DNA of 64,000 bases from Octopus vulgaris (Eukaryota). Below the pieces are notes generated by a model. It was not told the origin of the DNA and did no database searches. It worked only from the letters and a program-made list of their open reading frames with translations. Both the position numbers and the translations under genes were made by a program. Where the stretch lies: the NCBI GenBank assembly GCA_951406725.2, contig OX597837.1:1302001-1366000 (forward strand), written 5' to 3'. Positions 27,678 to 60,920 of this stretch are shown here, one piece after another. The stretch's first letter is position 1, and every line of letters begins with the position of its first letter.

Positions 27678-28138
27678 GTTGTCGTCGTCGTCGTCCTCTT
27701 CCTTTTTTTCCATCGCCACCGACCCTACCCCTTCCTTGTTCGACATTTAAACTCACATAAAAAAAAAAACGACTTGACCTCAACCCCCATCGCTCCTGGA
27801 ACCACAACACCGACGTATTCGTCATCGCTGGCAATCACCATGAGCAATGCTAACAACAACAGTCAAATACCCTTTAAAATGCATTTTACTGTTTTAAAAA
27901 TGAAGGAAAACATTGGACACTGTAGTTCCAGCCGTAAAAAGAGAAGGCAGCATGGTGTCCGTCTGCCATTTGCTTGGTCATATTATATATATAAGCTCTC
28001 AGATGGCCAACGTTCTATGTATTTATATATGTATGTGTGAAGGACTTGCTAAGTTTATTTTGAGGAAAACTATCCGTTATCCTTATATTGAAAGTCTCAC
28101 TCGTCTCTATGTCACCGATGTTTATCCGGGGGACAATG

Positions 28139-28365
28139 TGGAGGCGCTTGGCTTAGTGATTAGGGTATTGGACTCACGACGGTAAGACTGTGGTTTCAAT
28201 CACGACCGTAAGACTCTGGCTATCCGTTGTGTTCTTGAGCCAAACACTTCATTTCAAGTTGCTGCAGTCCACTCAGCTGTAGAAATGAGTTTAGCCTGGA
28301 GGGGGACGGACTTCGCCATAGATACGCTGCATGGCTGCAGCTCCCCAACGACCCAAAAGGGCTTA
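28139..28365 (+). mobile_element. SINE family B (short-tail subfamily)
   Basis: GGAGGCGCTTGGCTTAGTGATTAGGGTATTGGACTCACGA...CAGTCCACTCAGCTG...GCCTGGAGGGG; matches 22678-22912. Confidence 0.88.
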
Positions 28366-28409
28366 CGGGATTGGTCAATTGTCAATGTGGTCCTAGATAT
28401 TCCTAAAAG

Positions 28410-28640
28410 TGAAAGCATATAATTTTCTGGTTTGAATGTTGCACTCATGATCACAAGATCGTGGTTTCGAATCGCAAACAAGGTGATGCATTGTTTTCTT
28501 GGGCAAGCACATCATTTCTCTTTAGTTGAGTTCACTCGGCTGTAAACTAGGTAACAACTCTGCAACAGACTGGTCCCTCATGCAGGAGAAAAGGGTATGT
28601 TGTGATCTCGGCCATTTATACACTAAACGAAACCGAGTCT
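28410..28640 (+). mobile_element. SINE family B, old copy
   Basis: CACTCATGATCACAAGATCGTGGTTTCGAATC...CTTGGGCAAGCAC...TTCACTCGGCTG. Confidence 0.6.
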
Positions 28641-28883
28641 GGGTACTCGACACAGAAGTTCACCTTCCTTACATGCCTCTGAAAAGTTGGGAGGGTCGTG
28701 GCTAAAACGCCTTTAATCATAAGTCTGTGATTAGGATTGGCCTGAGCCTGCTATGCTAGTGCTTCTGATGGTCAAGGCTGACCATATTTCTACATCTGTT
28801 GGGCAAGCATGGGTAAAATCTTTTGAGAAAGACAACTAGTCAGCCATACATTCCAGTTTTTCTCATTTCCACACCATACATAA

Positions 28884-29200
28884 CTGGTACTCCGTCGGTT
28901 ACGACCATGACGGTTTTGGGTGATCCGATCAACGCAGCAGCCAGCGCGTGAAATTAATGTGCAAGTGGCTGAACTCCACAGACACACGCACCCTTAATGT
29001 AGTTCTCAGAAGGATTCAGCGTGACACAGAATGTGACAAGGCTGGCCCTTTTGATATACAAGTACCGCTCATTTTTGCTGACTGAATAGACTGAGGCGAT
29101 GTGAAATAAAGTATCTTGCTCAAGGACACAACTCACCACCGGGAATCGCACTCATTACCTTACGGTCGTGAGCCGGATGCCGTAACCACTAAGCCACCTG
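28884..29200 (-). mobile_element. SINE family B (long-tail subfamily)
   Basis: CTGGTACTCCGTCGGTTACGACC...GATCCGATCAACG...CTTGCTCAAGGACAC...TAACCACTAAGCCAC. Confidence 0.9.
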
Positions 29201-29299
29201 CCTTTACTCTCTATACCACAGAAATTTATGAAAGGGAAACGCCTCAGGCTCTGGCTATTATTACATATTACTAGTGTCGCAGCAGGCATTGCTGTTAAA

Positions 29300-29466
29300 A
29301 CATAGAAAGACAAAAGATATTGCAAGGCATCTTACCCGAGCTCCCTACAAATCCGCTGATCCACCCCCACCTCCAGGAGGCATGTTTGAAGAGCCCCGAA
29401 TGGATGAAAAGTAATACTGAATCCGGTGGGATTTGAGCTCAAAATGCAAAGGTAACGATTCTGCCA
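29300..29466 (-). mobile_element. SINE family C, degenerate fragments
   Basis: CCCCGAATGGATGAAAAG...GGGATTTGAGCTCAAAA...TAACGATTCTGCCA. Confidence 0.55.
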
Positions 29467-30263
29467 ATATCAGCAGCACCAACAGAATTATCACGTGACC
29501 AATAACATCATCACATAACCAAGAACCAGCATTAACATCACAAGCTCCATCACCACCAGCATAATTCAAACAATCGCCACAACTGCCACCCCACCCCACC
29601 CCACCCTTAACCCACCCCCACCATATTCATCACACGCAAGCACAAACACATATACCCACACCTTCACCACCGTCAACACCGCTAATTACATTGCTATTTC
29701 TACAGCCAATCAAAATCAAACTGGAGAGCCACGAGTAGAGAGCTTCTCTGGTCATCATACATCAGTGCAACACAACTGACCGGGACTAAAGAGAAACAGC
29801 AAGAATAAAAAAACAAAGGTGTTTTTGACATCACCCTGTCCACCCACACCCTCATACCCTTTTAGCAGCTACCCAAGATTAGAACTGTTGGTCCACACCT
29901 CTAAGCCACAATCATACTCTCCTACACAGCTTCCTTGCATGATGCTAGACTGTCTGTCGGTCGGTCCGTCCGTCTTTCTATCTGTCTGCTTATTTATATC
30001 TTTCAGCTTATCTGTTTATCTGTCTGTGTGTCTGTCTGCCTCTCTGCTTATTTATCTATCATTTTTTTTTCACACGATCCCTTTTGATCAGAAATTTATT
30101 TTCTCCTTTTATTTTCTGTTTTCTTCCATTTCTTTCGTAAAGAAAAGCTCTTCATTGTATTTTGTCCCCTCTGTCTTGACACTGTGTGGCTAATAAAGAA
30201 AGTTATCTACCTGCCTATGTATGTATGTATGTATGTATGTATGTATGTATGTATGTATGTATG

Positions 30264-30327
<64 letters not shown>

Positions 30328-30815
30328 AATCAATCTGTCTATCATTCAATCAATCTATCAATCTGTCTGTCTGTCTGTCTATCTGCCTGAGTGCGCAAAC
30401 ACACATCCTTAACCACTCAAGAATTTGTGTGTGCATGCGTATATTATGTCGTTTTTGAAAAAGGAATTCGAATTCGAAAATAATAATAACAATAATAATA
30501 GTAATAATAATAATAATGTAAATGATGAAATAAGAAAAAAAATCCCTCTTGGATGGTAAAAGTAGAATGCTGCCCGCGAGACTTGTTCCACTTTTATCCA
30601 TTCAAAGATTTTTTTTTAACCCAATATTTACTCTCCATTTATTAATAAATTTATCTGCTTCGAGTTTCAACGTGGAAAACAATTTCAGGTCACCCGTTGT
30701 TTCTAAATTTTTATGTTGTAAGCAATGTGTGTGTTTGCGCGTGTGTGTGTGTGTGTGTGTGTTGTGTATGTGTGTGTGTGTTTGTGTGTGTGTGTTTGTG
30801 TGTGTGTGCGCGCGC

Positions 30816-30899
<84 letters not shown>

Positions 30900-30919
30900 G
30901 TATGGATAATGCTTAGCAT

Positions 30920-31113
30920 AGTTACAAGGCATGAATTGAATAGGGGAAGAGTGTTAGTCGACAATGTCAGCATCAGCATGCGGCTGCTTCCCTGTTTAAT
31001 CGACCCTGGATTGATGAAAGGCAGCGTTGATCTCAGCGGGATTTGAACTCGGAACGTTAAGAGCCGGAAGAAATACAGTCCGGCATTTCATCCAATGTTT
31101 TTACGATTCTGCC
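30920..31113 (-). mobile_element. SINE family C, degenerate
   Basis: ATCGACCCTGGATTGATGAAAGGCAGCGTTGATCTCAGCGGGATTTGAACTCGGAACG...ACGATTCTGCCA. Confidence 0.75.
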
Positions 31114-31123
31114 AATCCAACAA

Positions 31124-31395
<272 letters not shown>

Positions 31396-31796
31396 TTTCA
31401 TCTGTCTATCTATCTATCTGCCTATATATATATATATATAATGTATATAACGATCTACATATTTATGAATCTCTCTTTTCATCCACCTATCCTATCAATC
31501 TAAGTATTTATATCTGCCCATAACCGTCTCTCTCTGTCTCTCCCTTCCTGCATACGTATCTATCCTTCCTCCACTTCTCGTCCCCCTCCACCATCAGTTA
31601 AACATTAAGATTTAAGCCAACAACATGGCTTCCAATCCCCCTGTTGTTTGTTTTATGATTTTGTGACATTCCTCTATAACTGCACCGACTTAATATCCAC
31701 ATGTGCGCGATCATACACACACACACACTTACATACAGATGTATATGCATATATACATACACACACATTGCTGTGCATGTGTGACTGTTGCTGCGA

Positions 31797-31825
31797 GTGG
31801 GTCTCAGAGGTGCGCTTAACTGTGA
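31797..31825 (+). repeat. 29-bp exact dispersed repeat, copy 1 (GTG-GGTCTCAGAGGTGCGCTTAACT-GTG-A)
   Basis: Identical to 41125-41153; not part of any SINE family seen here. Confidence 0.95.
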
Positions 31826-32071
31826 AATACATCTCGATGACAACGGCGATGACGTCAACGAGAGTGACTTAAGACCATCATCTCCCACCACTACTACGCC
31901 TGTACCTCTCCCTCATCATCTCGCCATTGTCGTGCCCCTCCCCCTCCTCCTCCTCCTTCTCCTCTCCCGCCTCCCGTGTTTGGGAATTAAGTGTCAGGGG
32001 TGAGAGGTCAATGTCTGTTAGATTACATTGTTACAAGTTATTTTTCCTGCTAGTTACTTAAACACACGCAT

Positions 32072-32152
<81 letters not shown>

Positions 32153-32648
32153 GAGTATATATTTACACGTGCACACACAAAGTTCGTGCACGTACACGCG
32201 CGCATACACGGGCTTACAAACATAAATATGCGAAACACACACGCACTTACATCGACTTGATGCGAATATACATATACACACACATACATATACATATGTG
32301 TGTTTGTATATTCATCTAGCCTATGTCTAGGGCTATATGTTTATGCATATCCATATGTGTATATATATATGTGTGTGTGTGCGCGCGCGTGCATATATGT
32401 ATGTATATATATATATATATATCTACTTACACACATTCACATATTTAGACAATGCATAAAGCTCACATACGTATACACACACACACATATATATATATAT
32501 ATGCATATCTGTATGTGCCTGTGTACACATGCACACAAACACATGCACACCCGCCCACACGCACATGCTTATGTATACATATCGACACAAGATGTAGTTG
32601 TGTGCACGCATACGTATGAGTATATTTCGTGCATATTCATATAGACAC

Positions 32649-32684
<36 letters not shown>

Positions 32685-33081
32685 GTTCATATGTGTATAT
32701 ATATATATATTCACATACATACGTGAAACCATAAGCTTATAGAGACACAGAAGTGAAGAGTCATATACATACATACATACAGAAACCCGTCATACTCTGG
32801 AATCTGACGTACACACGTCAATCTTCGCATGTATATATACACGCACATGCGTACATGTACAAGTAGGCATATACATATCCCCACACTGGAGCATAATCTT
32901 ACACATAATTATCTCTCTTTTTTCCCAAATACACACACGGATAATTTTCGCTGCAGCACTCGTATCATTCAGTGCACATACAACACGCTCACACATGCAC
33001 AGAAACAGATGCAGTGCTCTAACAACATTACGGTCAAAGGGACCACCAACACACACACACACACACACACGTACACACACG

Positions 33082-33112
<31 letters not shown>

Positions 33113-33205
33113 TTTCAGTCCTTTTCCTCATGAATTTTAAATATACACCGATAAAGATATCTGTGTAGAAATCTCTCTTTCTTCTCCACTTTCTCTCTGT
33201 CTCTG

Positions 33206-33297
<92 letters not shown>

Positions 33298-33329
33298 TAT
33301 ATATATAGTGTTATTCTTTTATACAGTTA

Positions 33330-33516
33330 TTCCTTTACTTGTAGCCACACTACTTTAATGTTTTAAAAGCCTGGTATTTATTCAGTTGGTCTCTTTTGCC
33401 GAGCCACTAGGTAAAATTTCAGCAAAGAAGTAACAGTAAATGTACCACCACTGGTTGTCAAGTAGTGGTGAATGACACACACACACACACCCACCTGCGC
33501 CTATTGTATATATACA

Positions 33517-33554
<38 letters not shown>

Positions 33555-33735
33555 TATATATATATATTATATATATGCATATATACAATGTATGTGCCTG
33601 TCTTTGTGTGTTTGTCCCCCACCACCGCTTGACAACCGGTGTTCGTGTGTTTACGCTCCTGTGAGTAGTTCGGCAAAAAAAGTGACCTATAGAATAAGTA
33701 CAGTGAAAATGACTGAAACAAATAAAAGAATAAAA
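33330..33735. mobile_element. Two family A SINE 3' halves in inverted orientation around an (AT)n tract
   Basis: 33330-33480 minus (GGTCTCTTTTGCCGAG...GGTTGTCAAG); 33595-33735 plus (CTTGACAACCGG...TTCGGCAAAA...GACTGAAAC). Confidence 0.75.
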
Positions 33736-34464
33736 GAAAAGAATATCTAATATGGAGTTGATTTGGCCAACGAATGGAACTCCCGATGCTGGCTAAACAT
33801 CGCAAAGCAATTTCATCCTAGCTATCGATTGTTTCCTCTATGGCTTACCATATAAATATCAAGAAGAATATTAATAAAGTTTGGTAGTAATTGCTATTTA
33901 AGAGGAATCCCAATTCAATAGAGCGCTTATTGAGTTTTCCTTTCCGCTGCTACCTTAGCTACAAACAGTTACCGTCTTCAAAATATGTAGATTCTCTTTA
34001 AATACCCACAATATGGAGATTAAATTAATCTGAAACAGATTTCTGAAGCTATTCTATACAAATATCTGTCTACCAATAATGGTTCCATAATGAGAAAAAG
34101 AAAACAAAAGTAATTAAAGAAATAAAAAAATATTCAGAATTACCAGCAAAATGGTTGTACTTCAAAAATTGCAGAGCTGTTTATGCGTTCAGGTTGTTTA
34201 AAGCTATATCTGGAGTCACAAGTACGCATACTTTAGACTATAAAGAGGTTATAAATCGTAGCCAATCTGTATTCATTGCGGCAGCGCTACATGTCTACGT
34301 GTGTGTGTGGACTTAGCTACCTTTGTGTAAGTGAGTGTGTTTGTGTGTGAGTGGATGCGCATGTACGTGTGTGTGTGTGTCTTTGTGTGAATTTTTATGT
34401 CGTGTGCTAATGGGTGTGCATAAGAAATATAACGCTGTGTTTCTGCGTGTGATTTCATCTGCAT

Positions 34465-34503
<39 letters not shown>

Positions 34504-34593
34504 TGTGTGTGTGTGTGTGTGTGAGTGTGAGAGAAAGATTTATAATTTCATACAGCTCTGTAAGTAAATACATGTACAAGTAGGCATATGTAT

Positions 34594-34652
<59 letters not shown>

Positions 34653-34665
34653 ATATATATATATA

Positions 34666-34732
<67 letters not shown>

Positions 34733-35127
34733 AGTGAAAGAGGGAGAGAACAATTTGCTTTTATGTTATATACATAAAAGAAATATAACATTAACTCGAA
34801 GGTATTAAATTTTACAATTAAAAGTTTGATTGTGACTTCGAAGTTGCGGCTTGCTCACCTGTGTGTGTGCGGCGGGGAGTATATATACTGATCGTAGTGG
34901 ATAGTCGTTAACTGGAATAATATGAATGTGTGCTAGTGTATACATGTGTCTCTGTGTGTATATACGTGTGTGAATGTGTGAGACTGGTATTGTGTATATC
35001 CCTCCTCTGTGTGTGTATGTGTATATATGTTTTTATGTATAAGTATTTGCATGTATGTAGCCATGTACATATGTATGTGAACACATTTATGTATGTATTT
35101 ATGCTTCAGTGTATATAAATGTGTGTG

Positions 35128-35260
35128 TATGTATGTATGTATGTATGTATGTATGTATGTATGTATGTATGTATGTATGTATGTATGTATGTATGTATGT
35201 ATGTATGTATGTATGTATGTATGTATGTATGTATGTATGTATGTATGTATGTATGTATGT
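35128..35260. repeat. (TATG)n microsatellite
   Basis: Seen directly. Confidence 0.97.
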
Positions 35261-36129
35261 GTGTATGTATGTATGCATGCATTACGTATGTGTGTGTGCT
35301 TTTTGAATGTAAGGCTATAATTTTACTCTGCAACCGGTTTAAGAGATTCAGCAATGGCGCTACCCGGGGTAGATATTTGCATATCACGTGTACATGTGTG
35401 TATAGATATATGTGCATGAATGCTACTAAACGCACACACACATTCATATACATAAATGCATATTCATTCATGTGTGTATGTGTGTGTGTATGCGTGCGAA
35501 CATATATACATATGTATGGATATGTGACTATGTGTATATGTGTATGTGTTTATATACGTCTATGTGTGTGTTTATATATATGTTTGTGTGTGTGTGTGTC
35601 TGTGTCTGTCTGTGCGTATGTATGTGGTGCGCGCGCACTAATGCCTAGAGTGAAACAGTCCGGCTTTGCTGCGCTTACGGCTGGAAAATGGTGATGACTG
35701 TGGGATGATGGGAAGGCAAGTGAATGCTGGGAAAGCATATATGGTAATGCAGTAGAAGACTGATTCTAATTGATGGCCAGTTTTGGCAAGCCGTCTCAGA
35801 CTTTATAATTAAGGATGACATATTCATCCTCGTTGTTCCGGCCGAAACAGTCACGAAGATCTGCATACGCAAGTGTACGTGGCCATAGGTGCGTGTGTGT
35901 GTGTTTGAATATGTATGTGCTTGTATTTGTCTAACTTTAGCAATGCGTTTGGGTGTTCATTTCTGTGTGCGAGTGGCTGTGTATCTTTGAACATGTGTCT
36001 ATGAATGTGCGTGAGACTGAGCATTGTATGTGAGTGTGTGTGTGTGTGTGTTTGTTATCAGATCAGTACACATATAGAAAAAGGGAGGATGATAAATGAG
36101 TAGAGCGAGGAAAGTGTTTGCGAGTGTAT

Positions 36130-36512
36130 CTCTTTTAGCCTTTACTTGTTCCAGTCATTAGACTGCGGCCATGCTGGGGCTCCACATTTTTTTAAAGTCT
36201 GGCACTTATTCTATCGTTTCCTTTTGCCGAGCCGCTAGGTTATGGCTGGTTGTCAAGCGGTGATGAGGGGACAAACACAGACACAAAAGACACAGTTATG
36301 TATATATATATACATATATATATATATACGACGGGCTTCTCTCAGTTTCCGTCTCCCAAATCCACTCATAAGTCTCTGGTCGGCTCGAGGCTGTAGTTGA
36401 AGACATTTGCCGAAGGTGCCACGCAGTAGGACTGAACCCAGAACCATGCGTTTGGGAAGCAAGCTTCTTCCTGCACATCCACGCGTTCGTCTAACCATAC
36501 AGCCACGCCTAT
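36130..36512 (-). mobile_element. SINE family A with internal deletions and a duplicated head tip
   Basis: TTTACTTGTTCCAGTCATT...GACGGGCTTCTCTCAGTTTCCGTC...GGACTGAACCCAGAACC...CAGCCACGCC. Confidence 0.88.
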
Positions 36513-36800
36513 CCTTATATATACACCCCCCCCACACACACACACACAAACACACACGCATAGGTGTGAGTGACTCTTATGCAATTTTTCTTGACTTTCT
36601 GTTCCATTTTTTATTTCCAGCCCTTTCTTTTTCCTCTCTCTTCACTTTCAACTCCGTATCCGACGCAGTGCTTTGCCCGAAGCTCTTTCATTTTATAACA
36701 AGTTTCTTCGAGCGTCAAACTAAATAATATTCTCCGTAAACGTCGTTTGAACGTTTGTTGTTTTTCTATTTCAATTGGTCCCTTCCTATTGATTTGCTTA

Positions 36801-36846
<46 letters not shown>

Positions 36847-37107
36847 TAGTAAGAAGAGGAATGTAATATCCAGACAAGCTAATAACTGGGGAAAGTTCTC
36901 CGAACAATGCCATACTTAAATGACCTGAAGAGTTCGTACCAATAATGCAGAAATGGCTGCATATGAATATACAACAGGACGCAGTCGGTGCGATCGAAAC
37001 ACGTGTCGGACTGTTATTATGAATAAAGCAACTGGAAATGAGCATAACATTTGAAAATTCAAATTATTCATTCTCCTTATTATCAATATATATATATATA
37101 CATATAT

Positions 37108-37306
37108 ATCAAAATAAGCAACAGGATATCAAGAAGTGATGCAGTACGACCGTTTCAAGCGTCTCCATTTAACTGAACAATCATTATATCAATTTAAATT
37201 TGATGTGTAAATTGAATTGATGTAATGATTGCATTGTTCAATTAAATGGAGCCGCTTGAAACAGTAGTACTGCATCACTTTTGGATATCCTGTTGCTTAT
37301 TTTGAT
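37108..37306. mobile_element. ~200-bp palindrome (foldback), probably derived from a Penelope-like element terminus
   Basis: ATCAAAATAAGCAACAGGATATC...GATATCCTGTTGCTTATTTTGAT; arms of about 95 bp with few mismatches, centre near 37203. The palindrome is seen directly; the origin is inferred. Confidence 0.7.
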
Positions 37307-38350
37307 TTTATTCACCTTATTTTGAAGTTGTACGGATTATACCGCACTAATTTTTGGTGCTTCACCTGAATCTCAGTTATTTTGCTCTCTCTCTTTCTGT
37401 ATATATATATATATATACATACATACGCGCGCCCTCACACACATATACATGCGTCGTTTATGTGTGTGCATGTTTATTTCGTTTAATATTGCTGGATAGG
37501 TTGCTGCGTGACACATTTCAAGAGTATGGTGAGAAGTGCGAGGTGGGATGCGAGACATCTTCAAAGCAGAGGCCGGAACAAGTCCTTTTAAAAGAGTGAA
37601 TTCTCTTAAAGGCACATACAATGGCAGGTGTTGCTTTTAAACCGTATGAAGAATAAAGTCTAGCAACCAAGTAGGCAGCGGCGTCATTCGAACTCAGAAC
37701 GCAAAGCGGGTCTCAAGTATGGTTAAGAAGTTAGCTATGTAGACTCGTGAATTAAGGTTCAGTCCCAGTATGTGGCACCTGCGGCAAGAGTCTAGCAATT
37801 CCCTGGGAGATACTTTTGTTGACAGAGACTGTGTGGAATCCTGTTGCGTGTGTATAATTATTTGGCAAAAAATAAAGACAACATGAACAATATCGAACAT
37901 TTGAACTATCGATTAATTGTTTGACCAGTGTGTTTAACAAACGAGTTAGAAAAACTAGTAAAAGAAAACGGTTGATCGATAGATTTGTTAGTGGAGTAAG
38001 TAAGCCATTAACTAACAATAACAATAAAGGGCCGAACCAGTGCGTGGGTTTCTTATTACCAACATAATGCCCCTCCCAAGGTTCAGTAGTATATACATAT
38101 GTGTGTGTTTGTGTGCTGTGAATTGATATATCCACGTTAATTGATAACACATAGGTAAATTCGATTACGTAATTACAGTGCAGTAATGCCGTTAGAATAC
38201 ATTTAGGTGTTCATACACAAACGGCTAATACAAGTATTGCGAACAACACATTTAGAATACGATGCACAAAAGCATGAATTTCACATAATTTTCATATGTA
38301 ATTAGATTATGAATTATATTTGAAATTTATGCTTTTCTGCTTTATAACCC

Positions 38351-38445
38351 CATACCACCGACACCATTGGAAGACCCGTAATACTTCGTGTAATCTCATA
38401 CCACCGACACCATTGGAAGACCCGTAATACCTCGTGTAATCTCAT
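38351..38445. repeat. 46-bp tandem duplication (2 copies, 1 mismatch)
   Basis: CATACCACCGACACCATTGGAAGACCCGTAATACYTCGTGTAATCT x2. Confidence 0.95.
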
Positions 38446-39484
38446 GCAGTCTTAGCCAAAATGGAAAGAGATTACCAAGATTTCTTCCAAGTGGAACGCT
38501 TGGAACTTGAGAGTTTTTCACCTGATATCATACATAGTATAGATAACCCACAGATAATAAATATATTTAGTGTAAATGAATCAAGTACAACTTTTTAACA
38601 TAAGCAGTGAATAATTTTATTCTGCGTTTGTATTTACGGAATATAAAAATATAAAGATACGTTTCCACAGTGTAAATGTTTTGGGATAGCAATATAATTT
38701 CGTTCATCTGAAACTATATTGATTTCTATAAACATATATAGCGAAAGTGGGAGAGGTGGAAGGAACTATAAGAGTCACACGTTGAATCTAGTCATCTATA
38801 CCAAAACGGTGCTACTATATACATTTCTTTCAGTTTTAGTATTAAAAGTTTTTCTTTTTTTCTTTCTTTTTGTTTTTGTTTATTTTCCTTTTTTGCTGTA
38901 TATGAACAAAGTCATATTTATCTGACCCGGATCCGGTTTTGTTGAATTTAGCCGGCGAAGGTTATGTAATTTTTCTATATTTAAAACCATGAACGGTTTA
39001 ATGATTTTACACACACACAGTATTTCCTTTTTTCTTAGCTCTTCATGCTTAGATTGAATCTTCACCTTGAAACAAAGAAAACTAAAAGGATTCATTAAAT
39101 ATCGTCTGTTGGTGCCATTAGAATGACATGATGGTGTAACTTGCAAAACTTTCGATCATAGTGTTTCTTCCTCAAGGTTGACCTGGAACTAAATAGGCGC
39201 AACAACAATAACAGCATCAACTACAATCGCAAAATGTTGTCTGATTTTTGTGGGGATTTTTTGTGGGGCACAATTGCGTGTATTGTCTGTTAAGCCAAGA
39301 ATGATGAGACCCAAATAGGTTGAAATTGCGACGCTTCGATCATTCTTACATGCTTTTATCTCTTTCCCGTTGGCTTCTTTCTTTACAGCACCTTCACACT
39401 CATATATACATGCATACAACATGCACACAACATGCATACATACATACACACATATATACATACATACATACATACATACATACA

Positions 39485-39518
<34 letters not shown>

Positions 39519-39908
39519 GAAACATACATACATACATTTGCCTGTGTGTGCACGCGTGCGTAAGACAGAAAAGTGTGTCTATGTTTTGATGTATATGAAT
39601 ATATATATTTAAATATAGTATTGGAGTGTAAATAAGCGAGAGCGAGAGAGTAAGTGTGTGTGAAAGTAAGTGAGAGAGAAAGAGAGAGAATACAGACAGA
39701 GCAGTTGTGTGTGTATATGTCCGTAGTTTGTTGTATTGTATAGCCGGTGCGCGTTTGTTTGTTGTTATTTGTGTGTGTTTTCTAAGTGCGTTCGCGTTTG
39801 ATATGTGTACGTCAGTTCGCGTGTGTATGTCTATATGTGTATGTGTTTGGATCTTAGCCTTAGTGTGTGTGTGTGTGTGTATGTAGGCGAATATGTCCGT
39901 ACATGTTT

Positions 39909-39959
<51 letters not shown>

Positions 39960-40332
39960 TGTGTGTGTTTGTGTACGAATATTTCGCACGCATGACATCC
40001 TCTATCAATCAAGTGTGGAGAAAATGCGTGTGCAATTTGGCAAACACGCGTTTTCTGTTGAAATGAACAAAACAATGAGAACCCCCTCCCACCGCCCTCG
40101 TTCCTCCATCTCTCTTCCCCTCCCACCCACACACCTTCTGCCTCCACCAGCACCGAACCCTTAACCCTAGCTTTCACCTACCCCCCCCCCCCCACTACCA
40201 ATCCATACCACATTTGCATCTACTTCATATTCATATATGCATATTTTCTTGATTCTTGTTTCTGCTCAGCTTCAAAGCCTCGAAATAGATTCCTCGCCCC
40301 CGCCATATTGCATTAAGCAAGTTATTGTCGAC

Positions 40333-40425
40333 ACCCCCACCCCTGCTGGCACCCCCGCTGCCACCCCCGCTGCCACCCCTGCTGCTAACCCTGCTGCCAC
40401 CCCCGCTGCTACACCCGCTACCACC
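40333..40425. repeat. 12-bp GC-rich minisatellite (ACCCCYGCTGCY) x ~7
   Basis: Seen directly; gives the TPAA repeat in ORF 40237..40467. Confidence 0.85.
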
Positions 40426-40749
40426 ACTGTAACGACTACTATTTCTCTTACCACTAACACCTTTTGATGATGATGTTGTGGTGATAGTGATGTCGCTAAT
40501 GACAAAATCACTGGTGGTGATGGTGCGGCGGCGGCGGTGGTATTGGTGATAATGTTTTTATGAAGACGATGTTGAAAAAGAAGGAGGAGGATAAAGAATT
40601 CTAACTTAGGCACCAGGCCTCCTTGGTTTTCTTTTTCGTGTCATGAAAGACATTCGATTGTCACGCAGTGTATGACTGGTACTTGACTTACTTGGCTGAT
40701 ATCGGCGAGGTCGATAGTGATGAGGCTGAGAAAGATAACGATAATAAAG

Positions 40750-41760
40750 GTGATGATGATTTTGATGATGTTAATGATTTCTTTGACTTGATCACGAGGG
40801 CCCAAGACATTGCTGACAATCCTGGGACAAAATAGAATCCACAAAGATTAGGTTCACATTGAGAAAAAAGAAAGCAGAAAAAACAAAAGATATGAAGGAT
40901 TTCCGCAAGCTCCCTAAACGAAGAAGAAGGCCATGTAGCGTTAGGCCCGGGTAGCACCTGTCAAAAGCCCAGATATTTTGTAACACTCAAGGCATCTCCG
41001 TTTCATCCCCTTTAGAAGCGTATTACCCACTCTCGATCTATTCAGCTTTTACCGTTCTTAACCACAATTCGTGGAACATAACAAGAGGCAGCACCCTTCT
41101 CTCTACTATCACTTTGGTCTTCACGTGGGTCTCAGAGGTGCGCTTAACTGTGATATTTGAAGAATTTCATGAGGGTGTGGTCAAAGAGGAAAATACCTGT
41201 CTTCAAACTTAACAGACGAACCCACTGCACAAATTCTTTTGCCATAGCCGTCTAACCGACATCGAATAGCCACCTTCCCTTGCCAAAGGAAAATGGCGCA
41301 TCAATCTTCACTCAAGACTCAACAGACACCTGAATTCGTCTCATACTTGACAGCAGATGTCTGGCAGAAGACCCGTAAGCTGCTGATGTACGGACATTGG
41401 TCGATAACGTGTAGGGCAGTTTCTTCGCCCTGTGCACATCTGTTAGCAAATCCATACCTGCAGACTTAATTTCAAATAAATGTCATCTACGTGTAGTATT
41501 TCCACGCCAAGGACTTTTGGAAGTTGTCAATAGCCTCCAATCTAAAAAAAAATACCCCGCCAAAAATCGATCGCTTTGACTTTCTCGACGACGCTCAGTC
41601 TGTCATTATTGATAATCTACATTAACCCCGTCTAAAATGCAAAAGTTGTTTTGCTGCCAACGGTCTTTTCCAGTTGGCACATTACTGTGAACGTCTGGCA
41701 ACATTCTCGATGTCGGACGTCGATCTTATCCTGACCTGTGATTGCAGCTCATTCAAAGAC
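40750..41760 (-). mobile_element. L1/Tx1-clade LINE 3' part (ORF2 C-terminus with zinc knuckle, 3' UTR, (ATC)n tail), pseudogenised
   Basis: Minus strand: IDNFQKSLAWKYY ... C(N)RCAQGEETALHVIDQCP (zf-RVT-type CxxC..EETxxHxxxxC, about 41391-41450, one indel) ... MAKEFVQWVRLLSLKTGIFLFDHTLMKFFKYH/VKTKVIVERRVLPLVMFHELW; T-rich 3' UTR ending in degenerate ATC repeats. Confidence 0.8.
41125..41153 (+). repeat. 29-bp exact dispersed repeat, copy 2, interrupting the LINE ORF
   Basis: Identical to 31797-31825; removing 25 nt restores the LINE reading frame. Confidence 0.95.
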
Positions 41761-41954
41761 ACGAAATTTAGATTTTACTCTTTCATTCTGTTTACTAATT
41801 TCACTCACGAGGCTCGGGCGGACCCGTGACTCTAGTAAAAGCCGTTTGTCCTAGACGCTACGTACTGGGATCCGATCGAATGTTGGGCTTGTGTTTGCAT
41901 AAACGAACGTTGTTATCTATTCAATCATACTGTGTCCATATACTCCTCCACATG

Positions 41955-42003
<49 letters not shown>

Positions 42004-42178
42004 TCACACACGTACCCACGCCAGCATGGATGCACATTTTGTGCTTTTTTCTATATTTTAAGGGGTTATATCATTATTCTTCGTGTAACGATAAACCGTG
42101 ATGTTGTGGTGTTCATGTCCTCGTTCCATAAATATAATACAATACGCCTAGTATAGTTGAAATGCAGAGAATCTAGAA

Positions 42179-42480
42179 CATAGGTTCTCAAAGTAGGCGC
42201 TACCGCCCTTCCCCGGTGGGCGCTGGTGCCTAAGGGGGGAGGTGCGGTAAAGAAGAAGGTGGCGTTGGGAGGAAGGCAGTGGATTGAGGTACGCTATGAA
42301 TTCAGTATAATATTGTTATAGTATTGTATACAGATTATATAATATTATATTAAATATCAAATGATTCATAGTGTATGTAAATTAGTAAAATATAAAATAT
42401 ATATTTATACATAAAAATAGGGGGTGGGGATATTATGTGGCCATGAGGGGGCGGTGACTCAAAAAGTTTGTGAATCTTTG
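42179..42480. mobile_element. hAT-Charlie-type MITE
   Basis: Degenerate TIRs CATAGGTTCTCAAAGT ... AAAAGTTTGTGAATCTTTG; flanks ATCTAGAA / TTCCAGAT resemble the Charlie NTCTAGAN target. Confidence 0.65.
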
Positions 42481-43739
42481 TTCCAGATTAAAAGACTCTT
42501 GCACAGAACACCGCGCAGTGGGGTCGAACCGAATACTTGCTGATTGCGAAGCGAACTTGTTAACTGTTAGGCCATACTTTCTATTAACTGTACTTTATCA
42601 AGGACGGCCAAGGGTCAATTAGTGCTGTAGGGGTCAGTAAGTGCTGAATGTAGGACAAAACATGGTGTCACATGCGCATGTCAGTATGTAGCTATGTTAT
42701 GTGAAAAGATTTTTACAAAGTAGAGAGACAGCGGGGGGAGTGAGCGAAGATGGAAGGGTGGGGTGGAGTGTCTGTGGTTGGCGGGGTGGGGAAGGGGGTC
42801 TAAAGAACGGAGGTGGTGGTGTTTGATGGGGGAAGTGTTGGAGAAAGTGGGATGGTAGAAAGGCAGGCAGGAGGCGGCGGGAGTAAGTGGTGCCGATGGC
42901 GGAGAGTGGAGTGGGAATGGGGTGGGGTGGGGTGGGTAAGGAAAAAAGAAAGACGAAGAGGTCGAGGAATGAGGGATGTGGTGGAGTGCAGCTTGTAGGG
43001 GGAGCGTGGGGGTCAGCTGAGGGTGAGTGTTGAAGAAATAAAGGGACGGGGGGGAGTTGGTAGAGAGGTGGGGGTCATTCGGAGTGTGAGATGTAGGAAA
43101 AGAGTGGTTAAGACTTGGATTGAGAAGACGAATGGAAGAAAGTTGAGTTCTTGGAGAATGTGGTGTGTGGACAGTTGGGTGTGGGCGTGGGGTGGAGAGG
43201 GCTGGAGTATAAGAATAAAAGACGATGGTTAGTGGTGAGGGTGGTGAGTTTTGGTGGAGGAAGCGGTCTGTAGGGTGGTGAGGTGGAGATAGGGAACAAG
43301 AAAGACGGGAGTAGGAAGAAGCCGGAGGAGTAGGGGAGGTGGGGTAGAGTGAAGAAAGAACAAGGATGTGGTACTGGGGCGGGGTGGGGCGGTTTGAAGA
43401 CCGGCTGGACGGTCGGTGGTTCTCCGTTAATGGACTCCACCATTAACAATCATTATTCGTTCCTCACCAACGAACCGATGTTCATCGTCACCGTCCAGTC
43501 GAACGACGCGTCCACCACCGCCGCCGCCTCCATATTATCATCTTTACCGATGTCACAGCCACCGACGACATCATCATCATCGTCATCAGTGTTGCAGTAT
43601 CAACGAAAATCAATACCACCACCATTGCCACTACCATCACGGTTCCATAGACACCATCGCAATTGACATCTACACCACATCACCATCTACACCAGCATCA
43701 TCACCACCAATACTGACTCCACCACCATCACCAAGATAA

Positions 43740-43875
43740 CGAGTCCGATGTGCTAGAAAAAACAGCTAATACTCCCTCAAATAACAACCTAAAAGTAGGA
43801 TACTTGGGATAACTTGGCCCTGGTTACTCTTTGTACAAGTTGTAGAAGACGGGATAGTCACGGCCGGAATGCTTT
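43740..43875 (-). repeat. Family D dispersed repeat
   Basis: TGCTAGAAAAAACAGCTAA..CTCCCTCAAAT...AAGACGGGATAGTCACGGCCGGAATGC. Confidence 0.65.
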
Positions 43876-44132
43876 CATCATCATCATCACCAGTATAACC
43901 ACCGTGACCACCACAACGATGATTTCAACGCAGTCATTCTACTTGCTGGTAAGACCCACGAACAACTTTCAGATTATAAATTAATGTCCTAAAGAAAGGA
44001 ACGACAGAGTCCTAAAGAAAGTGGTAGTCACGTTTGGAGGAGCTGTGATCATATGTGTGTCAAACCCCACCAATTACTATATCGTCATCAATCACATCAC
44101 CAATATTACTACTACTATAACTACTACTACAG

Positions 44133-44196
<64 letters not shown>

Positions 44197-44667
44197 GACT
44201 ACTATTTTAATTTTGACCAAACCATGCTTATGCCGTAGGCTCTATAATTTTCATTGCGTACATTTTTAAAAACAATTTGTCGTGATTTGAAACAGGCATT
44301 TATGGATGTTGTTTCTACCTTGTCAAACGGACAGGAAGAACAGAAGAGAAAATATATTCGGGCATTCGAGATTTATTAAAAAAGTGAATACAAAGCTTTT
44401 TGAAGCTATCACAAGCAACTTCTGTCTGCTGCAATTTCAGTTTTAGTAACTTATATATTTCTAAAAAAAAACATTGTCAAACATGTTGTTTGGAAGTCTT
44501 GTATTCTAAATATAATAATTAATAACAAATTATACATTGCTTGCTTTTTGGGGGAGCCATAAAATGGTACCCACCTTCTTTAGAAAGAGTACGCTAGCAC
44601 TGCCGATAGTACAAGGCAGAAAAGTCTAGTAAAGGGATTCTGCATTTGCTACCGTATTATTGTTGTT

Positions 44668-44825
44668 ATGGAGCCCCAAGTTATCCCTGATCAAACAGAT
44701 CTATGATCAAAGACATTCACAAATCTATCATTTATTTCTGCGCAGGGGACAAATCTGAGACCATGTTCTCAAATGGGTTCTTTTGAGATTTGGCTACTAT
44801 TTCTCGCAAACGTAACGATAGAGCC
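44668..44825 (+). repeat. Family D dispersed repeat
   Basis: GCCCCAAGTTATCCCTGATCAAACAGATCTATGATCAAAGACATTC...GAGATTTGGCTACTATTTCT. Confidence 0.65.
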
Positions 44826-45891
44826 CATTTTTCTCAGAATGGGGCGTGATAGCGATAAGAGTCAGCTTTCGCTAACGAACAAAATGGCTGCCGTATATTT
44901 TAATTCGACGCTCAAACACGATGTGCCATGGCTGCCCAGCCTCACTTTTATTGCCTTATAATTCATCCTTTACTGATTCTCTTTACTTTGCGCCGCCCAC
45001 ACAACCCCCAACCCACACCCTTTACTATAAATTCTGGTCACAAAGGTTTCCTTTGAACACATGGCAGCATACCATTCCAGATGCCGAAGAAATCTGAAGA
45101 CATAAAATTCTTATAAATTTTTGCCCTCTTCTTACGTGTTTACCGAAATATCTGGAAACTTTACAGCTTGTGTGGTGGAGGTGGTGGCGGAGGCGGTGGT
45201 ACGTGTTTTCGTGGGGGAGGTGGAGGTGGTTATATGTATGGTGGCGATGGTGGTGTATGTGTGCGTGGTGTTTGTGTGTACGGTGATAGCAATGATGGTG
45301 GGCGTGGGAGGGGGTGCATGTATGTTTGTAGTGAGTTTGTGGGTGTGGTGTTTGTGACGCTGTGTGTCATTGTGAGACTGTGTGTGTTTTTGTGCTTGTT
45401 TTCTGCGTACATCTCATTAGTAATGCTAATGGTGTGTGTTTATGTGTGTGTGCGTGTGTATGCGTATATGTTAGTCTGCATTATGATAATCGATGAATGG
45501 TTTGTGTGTTTAGTGTTAGTGTGCGTGTGTGAGTGTTGTGTCTATGTTGTTTGTATGCATGTGTGATCAGTATTGGCTGTATGTGTGTGTGTGTGCGTGT
45601 GTCTAGTGTGTATATCCACGTAAGTGGTTTTACATGTGTGTTAAGCTGTGGTATGTTAGTAAGGTCTGTGTGTGGTTTACGTGTGTCAAGTGTGTGTGTT
45701 TGTATTTTGTTTGTGTCTGTGTGTGTATGTTTGAGTATATGTATGTTATGGTAGTCTAAATGAGAGTCCACTGAATATCTGTAGCGTGTGTGTGGGAGAC
45801 TATATACTGTGGCTATGGTGATATGTGTATAGGTGCTGTGTGTGTATATGTGGAGAATCAGCTTCTATTTCTGTATGTTTACGGGTAATGC

Positions 45892-59781: not shown

Positions 59782-59849
59782 ATTAAAATCATTCTGAAGA
59801 AAAGAAAGGTTGCTAGTCTATAAAAACCAAATGAAATTACTTGACTTTC
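59782..59849 (+). repeat. 68-bp direct repeat, copy 1
   Basis: 67/68 identical to 60853-60920. Confidence 0.95.
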
Positions 59850-60852: not shown

Positions 60853-60920
60853 ATTAAAATCATTCTGAAGAAAGGAAAGGTTGCTAGTCTATAAAAACCA
60901 AATGAAATTACTTGACTTTC
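60853..60920 (+). repeat. 68-bp direct repeat, copy 2
   Basis: 67/68 identical to 59782-59849. Confidence 0.95.

Follow-up and report, generated by a model that had tools for sequence, protein, structure and literature searches.

Doublets, which Thomas et al. are said to have described in 2004, are reportedly short paired duplications of 25–100 bp with a same-strand bias and a spacing of ∼1 kb. Repair-mediated duplications were catalogued by Pace, Sen, Batzer and Feschotte in 2009, in vertebrates only, with a detection floor of 50 bp and an ad hoc distance cut-off of 5 kb; in that article, 824 of 1,136 donors are placed within 5 kb and 58 farther away on the same chromosome, three of 39 proximal cases fall into the 'MH+TSD' junction class (microhomology plus target-site duplication, TSD), the TSDs measure 4–21 nt, and human short duplications show a spacing peak at ∼1.2 kb (PMC2671141). 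Templated insertions ascribed to polymerase theta or to MMBIR (microhomology-mediated break-induced replication) are generally shorter than 25 bp, are primed by minimal pairing and occur as germline variants; their junction microhomology averages 3.7 bp in one data set, and their templates flank the break or lie within ∼100 bp of it (PMC12426944, PMC8421209). Class 2 templated sequence insertion polymorphisms (TSIPs; Onozawa and Aplan 2016) draw on distant donors or on other chromosomes, the experimental inserts being 73–414 bp long (PMC5110952). Here we describe a pair of 29-bp copies within 64,000 nucleotides of Octopus vulgaris DNA (assembly GCA_951406725.2, contig OX597837.1, positions 1,302,001 to 1,366,000), a stretch referred to below as the window. 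The two copies, site 1 at 31797–31825 and site 2 at 41125–41153, are identical, co-oriented and spaced by 9,328 bp. It is highly probable that site 2 was copied once, in the germline, from site 1, 9.3 kb upstream, by a microhomology-primed template switch. The features involved are the following, with positions counted within the window and with letters denoting the organisms whose public sequencing runs were compared.

31796–31825, plus strand: putative donor (site 1), by all appearances a native, single-copy tract; 30 nt are common with the site-2 allele of relatives and 29 nt with the allele of this assembly.
40714–41748 (ends approximate), minus strand: 3′ end of a decayed, 5′-truncated retrotransposon lacking long terminal repeats (a non-LTR long interspersed element, LINE), with a simple-repeat tail; putative host of the insertion.
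41124–41127, plus strand: left junction microhomology, which reads AGTG where 41124 is A (organisms B and C) and only GTG where it is C (this assembly).
41125–41149, plus strand: putative acceptor (site 2), a net 25-bp insertion whose register slides to 41128–41152 through the GTG repeat.
41150–41153, plus strand: right junction microhomology GTGA, followed by one mismatch and two further matches.

Set beside doublets, the pair is alike in being short, exact, unique in the genome, on the same strand and in unrelated flanks, one copy appearing native and the other inserted without disturbance of its flanks. It is unlike them in its spacing, 9.3 kb as against ∼1 kb; five other local direct pairs have gaps of 1.0–1.8 kb. 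With repair-mediated duplications the locus shares a transposable element (TE) copy interrupted by sequence from one other genomic place, a donor on the same chromosome, the lack of poly-A and the presence of microhomology (2–9 nt in PMC2671141); its empty site was also deduced from TE copies, as was done in that article for species lacking close relatives, and junctions of the 'MH+TSD' kind are on record there as well. Site 2 nevertheless departs from that group in its size (25 bp net, below 50 bp), in its donor distance (9,328 bp, beyond 5 kb) and in its TSD of 3 nt. Since it fails that article's cut-offs of 50 bp and 5 kb, it is not filed in that catalogue, though it works alike. The insert of 22–25 nt and the microhomologies of 4 + 4 nt at the junctions are as in polymerase theta and MMBIR insertions, from which site 2 differs in having a template 9.3 kb away rather than a flanking one (PMC12426944, PMC8421209). 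Class 2 TSIPs likewise lack LINE hallmarks and consist of a patch, drawn from elsewhere in the genome, at a presumed break (PMC5110952); the donor here is 9.3 kb off, and no polymorphism was seen at site 2 in the runs covering it (organisms B and C).

The exact co-oriented repeat that the original prediction had reported as exceeding chance was confirmed. The 22-nt core has two matches in the window when up to three mismatches are allowed, and over an extended comparison sites 1 and 2 agree in 31 of 32 letters. Chance origin of the pair is excluded, because none of 100 shuffles gave any match to the core and only ∼6 × 10⁻⁸ exact 29-mer pairs are expected per 64 kb. The genome-wide search that the prediction had proposed, carried out on the 2.8-Gb genome with the 22-mer (exact) and with the 29-mer (up to three mismatches), retrieved sites 1 and 2 only in either case; exactly one other genomic location thus exists for the site-2 insert, and it is site 1. 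The contexts are indeed unrelated, site 1 lying in unique DNA and site 2 in a decayed LINE. Also borne out was the view that the sequence fits no class of TE, as neither copy has a poly-A tail or inverted ends and there are only two copies. A mobile element or excision footprint with a TSD was considered and rejected, since several dispersed copies, and an empty site for each of them, would be expected of it.

Site 2 appears to be a true 25-bp insertion in the decayed LINE, because the 25 bp are absent from all 29 aligned paralogous LINE copies. A genome search seeded with 40900–41400, in which 40 of 190 candidates were scored, gave 39 non-self matches at 68–80% identity, most of which begin at 41151, the right edge of the repeat. 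Twenty-nine non-self matches were returned as loci (L006–L034), and these paralogs align collinearly with the window to the left and right of the repeat, over a span reaching from the simple-repeat tail (∼40714–40780) to at least 41360. The distance between the anchors is 62 nt in the window versus 37 nt in 26 of the 29 paralogs, 34 nt in two and 31 nt in one; the net gain of 25 bp consists of the 22 nt and the second GTG. The paralogs bear out the earlier view that site 2 holds a short insertion and that a GTG of 3 nt is duplicated there. The insertion would also be younger than the LINE copy, because no letter separates the insert from site 1, whereas the host LINE differs from its paralogs by 20–35% or more (the probability of no change in 22 nt at 27% divergence is ∼0.001), although distance to paralogs overstates the age of the LINE copy.

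Five of the 24 listed runs were compared with the window: X4 (organism B), X7 (organism C), X10 (organism D), and X16 and X17 (organism E). In the X4 contig the repeat is bordered on either side by the flanks of site 2, and the contig matches 31796–31825 without a differing letter. The X7 contig spans 40790–41299 without a gap, and reads A instead of C at 41124; run X7 has nine differing letters in ∼1,180, organisms A, B and C being ∼1% apart. Because organisms B and C both have A at 41124, the shared tract was probably 30 nt long, its left junction being AGTG and its right one GTGA. Removal of 25 bp from the B/C allele leaves a single AGTGA, the motif found in paralog L017. Judged from these alleles, the insertion would predate the split of organisms A, B and C. 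No deletion joint between sites 1 and 2 was listed, which is a weak negative because each site was compared separately. Both organism-E runs contain a contig of single-copy depth at 40790–40918, with 11 differing letters, after which the fit ends; this contig is either a closely related paralog or the ortholog, in a rearranged form.

Site 1, for its part, shows no sign of insertion as far as organisms E and D reach. Its context (31760–31930) matches only itself in the genome. In organism E, which is ∼3% diverged from this assembly, the two runs, from two studies, each span 31540–32060 in one contig, with 15 and 16 differing letters, and neither has a listed substitution or a gap over 31770–31845. 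The low-depth run from organism D covers 31770–31926 with two differing letters and no gap, and has no listed substitution or gap over 31770–31877; this contig is weaker evidence than those of organism E, since to the left of the repeat no more than 27 of its letters are aligned. An empty site-1 allele was found neither in organism E (both runs) nor in organism D (X10), and the empty site that the original prediction had reconstructed here is contradicted by the intact tract of these relatives. Its parsing of both copies as GTG + 22 nt + GTG holds as arithmetic; the reconstruction of an empty site has support at site 2 only. The lack of changes in 76 bp of site 1 relative to organism E has a probability of ∼0.06 at the local rate, so that special conservation of site 1 is not established. 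No convincing coding frame was found at site 1. Among the organism-E matches to site 1 there was no second copy of the 29-mer, a weak negative that is not used as evidence.

Since site 2 is inserted and site 1 is unchanged in a relative, the pair can be explained by one event in which site 1 gave the sequence and site 2 received it, and a templated insertion was among the options offered at the outset. The copying would take place while DNA was being repaired or replicated. At the acceptor motif AGTGA, a DNA end would terminate in AGTG, anneal to the AGTG of site 1 and be extended over the 22-nt core into the second GTG(A) of the donor; the extended end would then dissociate and re-anneal to the acceptor GTGA. 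The two microhomologies would overlap on one acceptor GTG, and because both junctions use that same GTG, nothing is deleted and GTG is found twice, mimicking a TSD. The apparent TSD and the target consensus proposed earlier are thus the 4-nt microhomologies at the two junctions; outside the junction motifs, the flanks agree in only 4 of 12 positions on the left and 2 of 12 on the right in this assembly. The repair pathway itself we infer, as polymerase theta end joining, synthesis-dependent strand annealing and template switching at a fork are inseparable from one junction. A POLQ-type gene is present, with POLQ_helical exons upstream of DNA_pol_A on the minus strand (G000:C24:24250265–24274106), and the distance of 9.3 kb makes the classic polymerase theta route, with its flanking template, somewhat less likely. 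The site-2 copy is most likely neutral. On this reading it is a commonplace scar of repair rather than a new mobile element.

Several observations weigh against a single templated copy from site 1. The donor distance exceeds that of the 5-kb group accepted in PMC2671141, and lies far past both the flanking templates of polymerase theta and the 100 bp quoted for MMBIR insertions in yeast (PMC12426944, PMC8421209). The empty site rests on paralogs, the majority of which have AATGA rather than AGTGA. An orthologous empty site was not seen: organisms B and C are filled, organism D has a coverage hole at 41111–41178, and the organism-E contig fits 40790–40918 only. Site 1 could itself be an insertion predating organism E. 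Finally, the other local pairs described below are not established as insertions, and some of the inverted ones may be transposon ends.

The same one-way copy might have been templated by a transcript or small RNA of site 1 through a reverse transcriptase, to which we give only a slim chance. The 22-nt core is as long as a small RNA; patches derived from RNA are known among templated sequence insertions (PMC5110952); and site 1 has no substitution over the 76 bp compared with organism E, with the probability given above. Against this, the 29-mer lies in no microRNA-like hairpin arm (60–110-nt windows folded on both strands), and an Rfam scan of 28000–45000 gave 114 matches at E≤5, all under the gathering score and none overlapping either copy; identity as a microRNA or another Rfam RNA was rejected on these two results. 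Furthermore, the microhomology at both junctions reaches into the genomic flanks of the donor, and the donor lies on the same chromosome, 9.3 kb off, as expected of a DNA template. That site 1 is a conserved, transcribed element whose RNA patched site 2, in a fixed case of germline RNA-templated repair, is improbable in our estimation; if true, a 25-bp functional motif would have been copied into a dead LINE. Separately, two small runs, X8 and X9 (guessed to be RNA, possibly DNA), contain 0.47 and 0.30 of the words sampled from 31750–41700.

The acceptor is a LINE and the two copies are identical in this assembly, so one may ask whether the 25 bp entered together with the LINE, by a template jump during reverse transcription, or whether selection or gene conversion keeps the copies identical. 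The likelihood of this is very small. The insertion is internal, with collinear LINE sequence on both sides, and the LINE copy has stops and frameshifts while the insert is unchanged: aligned by tblastn with the 310-aa frame of a paralog, which carries the Pfam domain zf-RVT, the LINE of the window shows stops and is spread over three frames. Gene conversion is disfavoured also because 29 bp is short for it. LINE-mediated insertion (class 1 TSIP), for which a poly-A tail and a TTTT/A target are expected (PMC5110952), was rejected, both being absent here.

That a 22-nt mini-element, a footprint or a recombination site was inserted twice independently at targets that it prefers, as the original prediction had it, is hardly to be believed. 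The GTG + 22 + GTG parse common to both copies, the inserted state of site 2 and the fact that the comparison reached no outgroup older than organism E speak for this. Site 1, however, is not empty in organism E or D; the only two copies in 2.8 Gb lie within 10 kb of each other; and 21 look-alike targets in 1.46 Mb are unfilled, as are all 29 LINE paralogs, which weighs against a target-seeking element because such an element should fill some of them. No source turned up either, with no match to the repeat in viral, metagenome and prokaryote contig collections and, among 72,556 plasmid records, two chance-level matches at E=9, none covering 80% of the query. An assembly, adapter or vector artefact, of which the original prediction had warned because the core starts with a BsaI-like GGTCTC (the hexamer alone), is refuted and its probability negligible, both loci being present in public runs that are independent and bear other organism labels, with no exact match in the three public collections, no plasmid record covering the query to that extent and neither strand of the 22-mer in the literature searched.

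The surroundings of the window were surveyed by self-comparison of 1.464 Mb (C24:902001–2366000) for pairs of 25–1000 bp that are at least 88% identical and match only each other within the 1.464 Mb. Of 24 such pairs, 12 are less than 10 kb apart versus 0.33 expected under uniform placement, a null that ignores transposon inverted ends. The 12 close pairs comprise six direct and six inverted ones, the five direct pairs other than the 29-bp pair having gaps of 1004, 1091, 1149, 1689 and 1769 bp; the pair with the 1689-bp gap is short and weak (E=0.003). A genome-wide search with three of the pairs showed two of them to be strictly two-copy; for the third, the partner is the sole full-length match, accompanied by partial matches to an internal simple repeat. 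An earlier BLAST survey with a harsher complexity filter, which dropped eight pairs, one of them real, placed nine of 16 pairs less than 10 kb apart. In strict exact-match surveys, in which isolated pairs numbered 2 of 140 in 464 kb and 4 of 113 in 1.46 Mb, the 29-bp pair was the only isolated direct pair less than 100 kb apart. Therefore, local two-copy pairs are a common class in the surveyed region, with the 29-bp pair in its short, distant tail, and the only unusual trait of the latter is that so short a tract has its donor as far away as 9.3 kb.

A second two-copy duplication within the window, 59782–59849 and 60853–60920, is 68 bp long, 67/68 identical and direct, with the copies 1,071 bp apart in unrelated flanks and no others genome-wide. 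Elsewhere on the contig (G000:C24), three more two-copy pairs, direct and with sharp boundaries, measure 292, 56 and 168 bp and are found at 1010560/1011940 (L126), 2030990/2032194 and 2146005/2147940 (L154), with gaps of 1.1–1.8 kb; the first and the third were among the pairs searched genome-wide. Inverted two-copy pairs of 57–314 bp with gaps of 0.1–1.8 kb are found at 1030034, 1508385, 1666250 and 2313693; these are either inverted repair duplications or transposon ends. Between the two 29-bp copies, at ∼37100–37310, lies a long inverted-repeat element, probably a miniature inverted-repeat transposable element, of which the 1.46 Mb examined contain several relatives.

By itself the finding, a single scar of repair that is probably neutral, is minor. 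As an example it is clean, in that the empty site is given by paralogs, the direction by relatives, and both microhomologies are readable. It also serves as a warning that microhomology alone can produce a 'TSD' of 3 nt and a 'target consensus'. The side result, of modest value, is the presence in 1.46 Mb of five direct pairs with gaps of 1.0–1.8 kb, near the human peak of ∼1.2 kb reported in PMC2671141. The class may be uncatalogued in cephalopods, since a literature search on octopus and repair-mediated duplication turned up only plant work, although that search was narrow and does not show absence from print. That octopus genomes carry vertebrate-like short duplications spaced by ∼1 kb is likelier, in our judgement, than an RNA-templated origin of site 2. 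If this is true, such duplications would constitute a fossil record of germline repair contacts in octopus.

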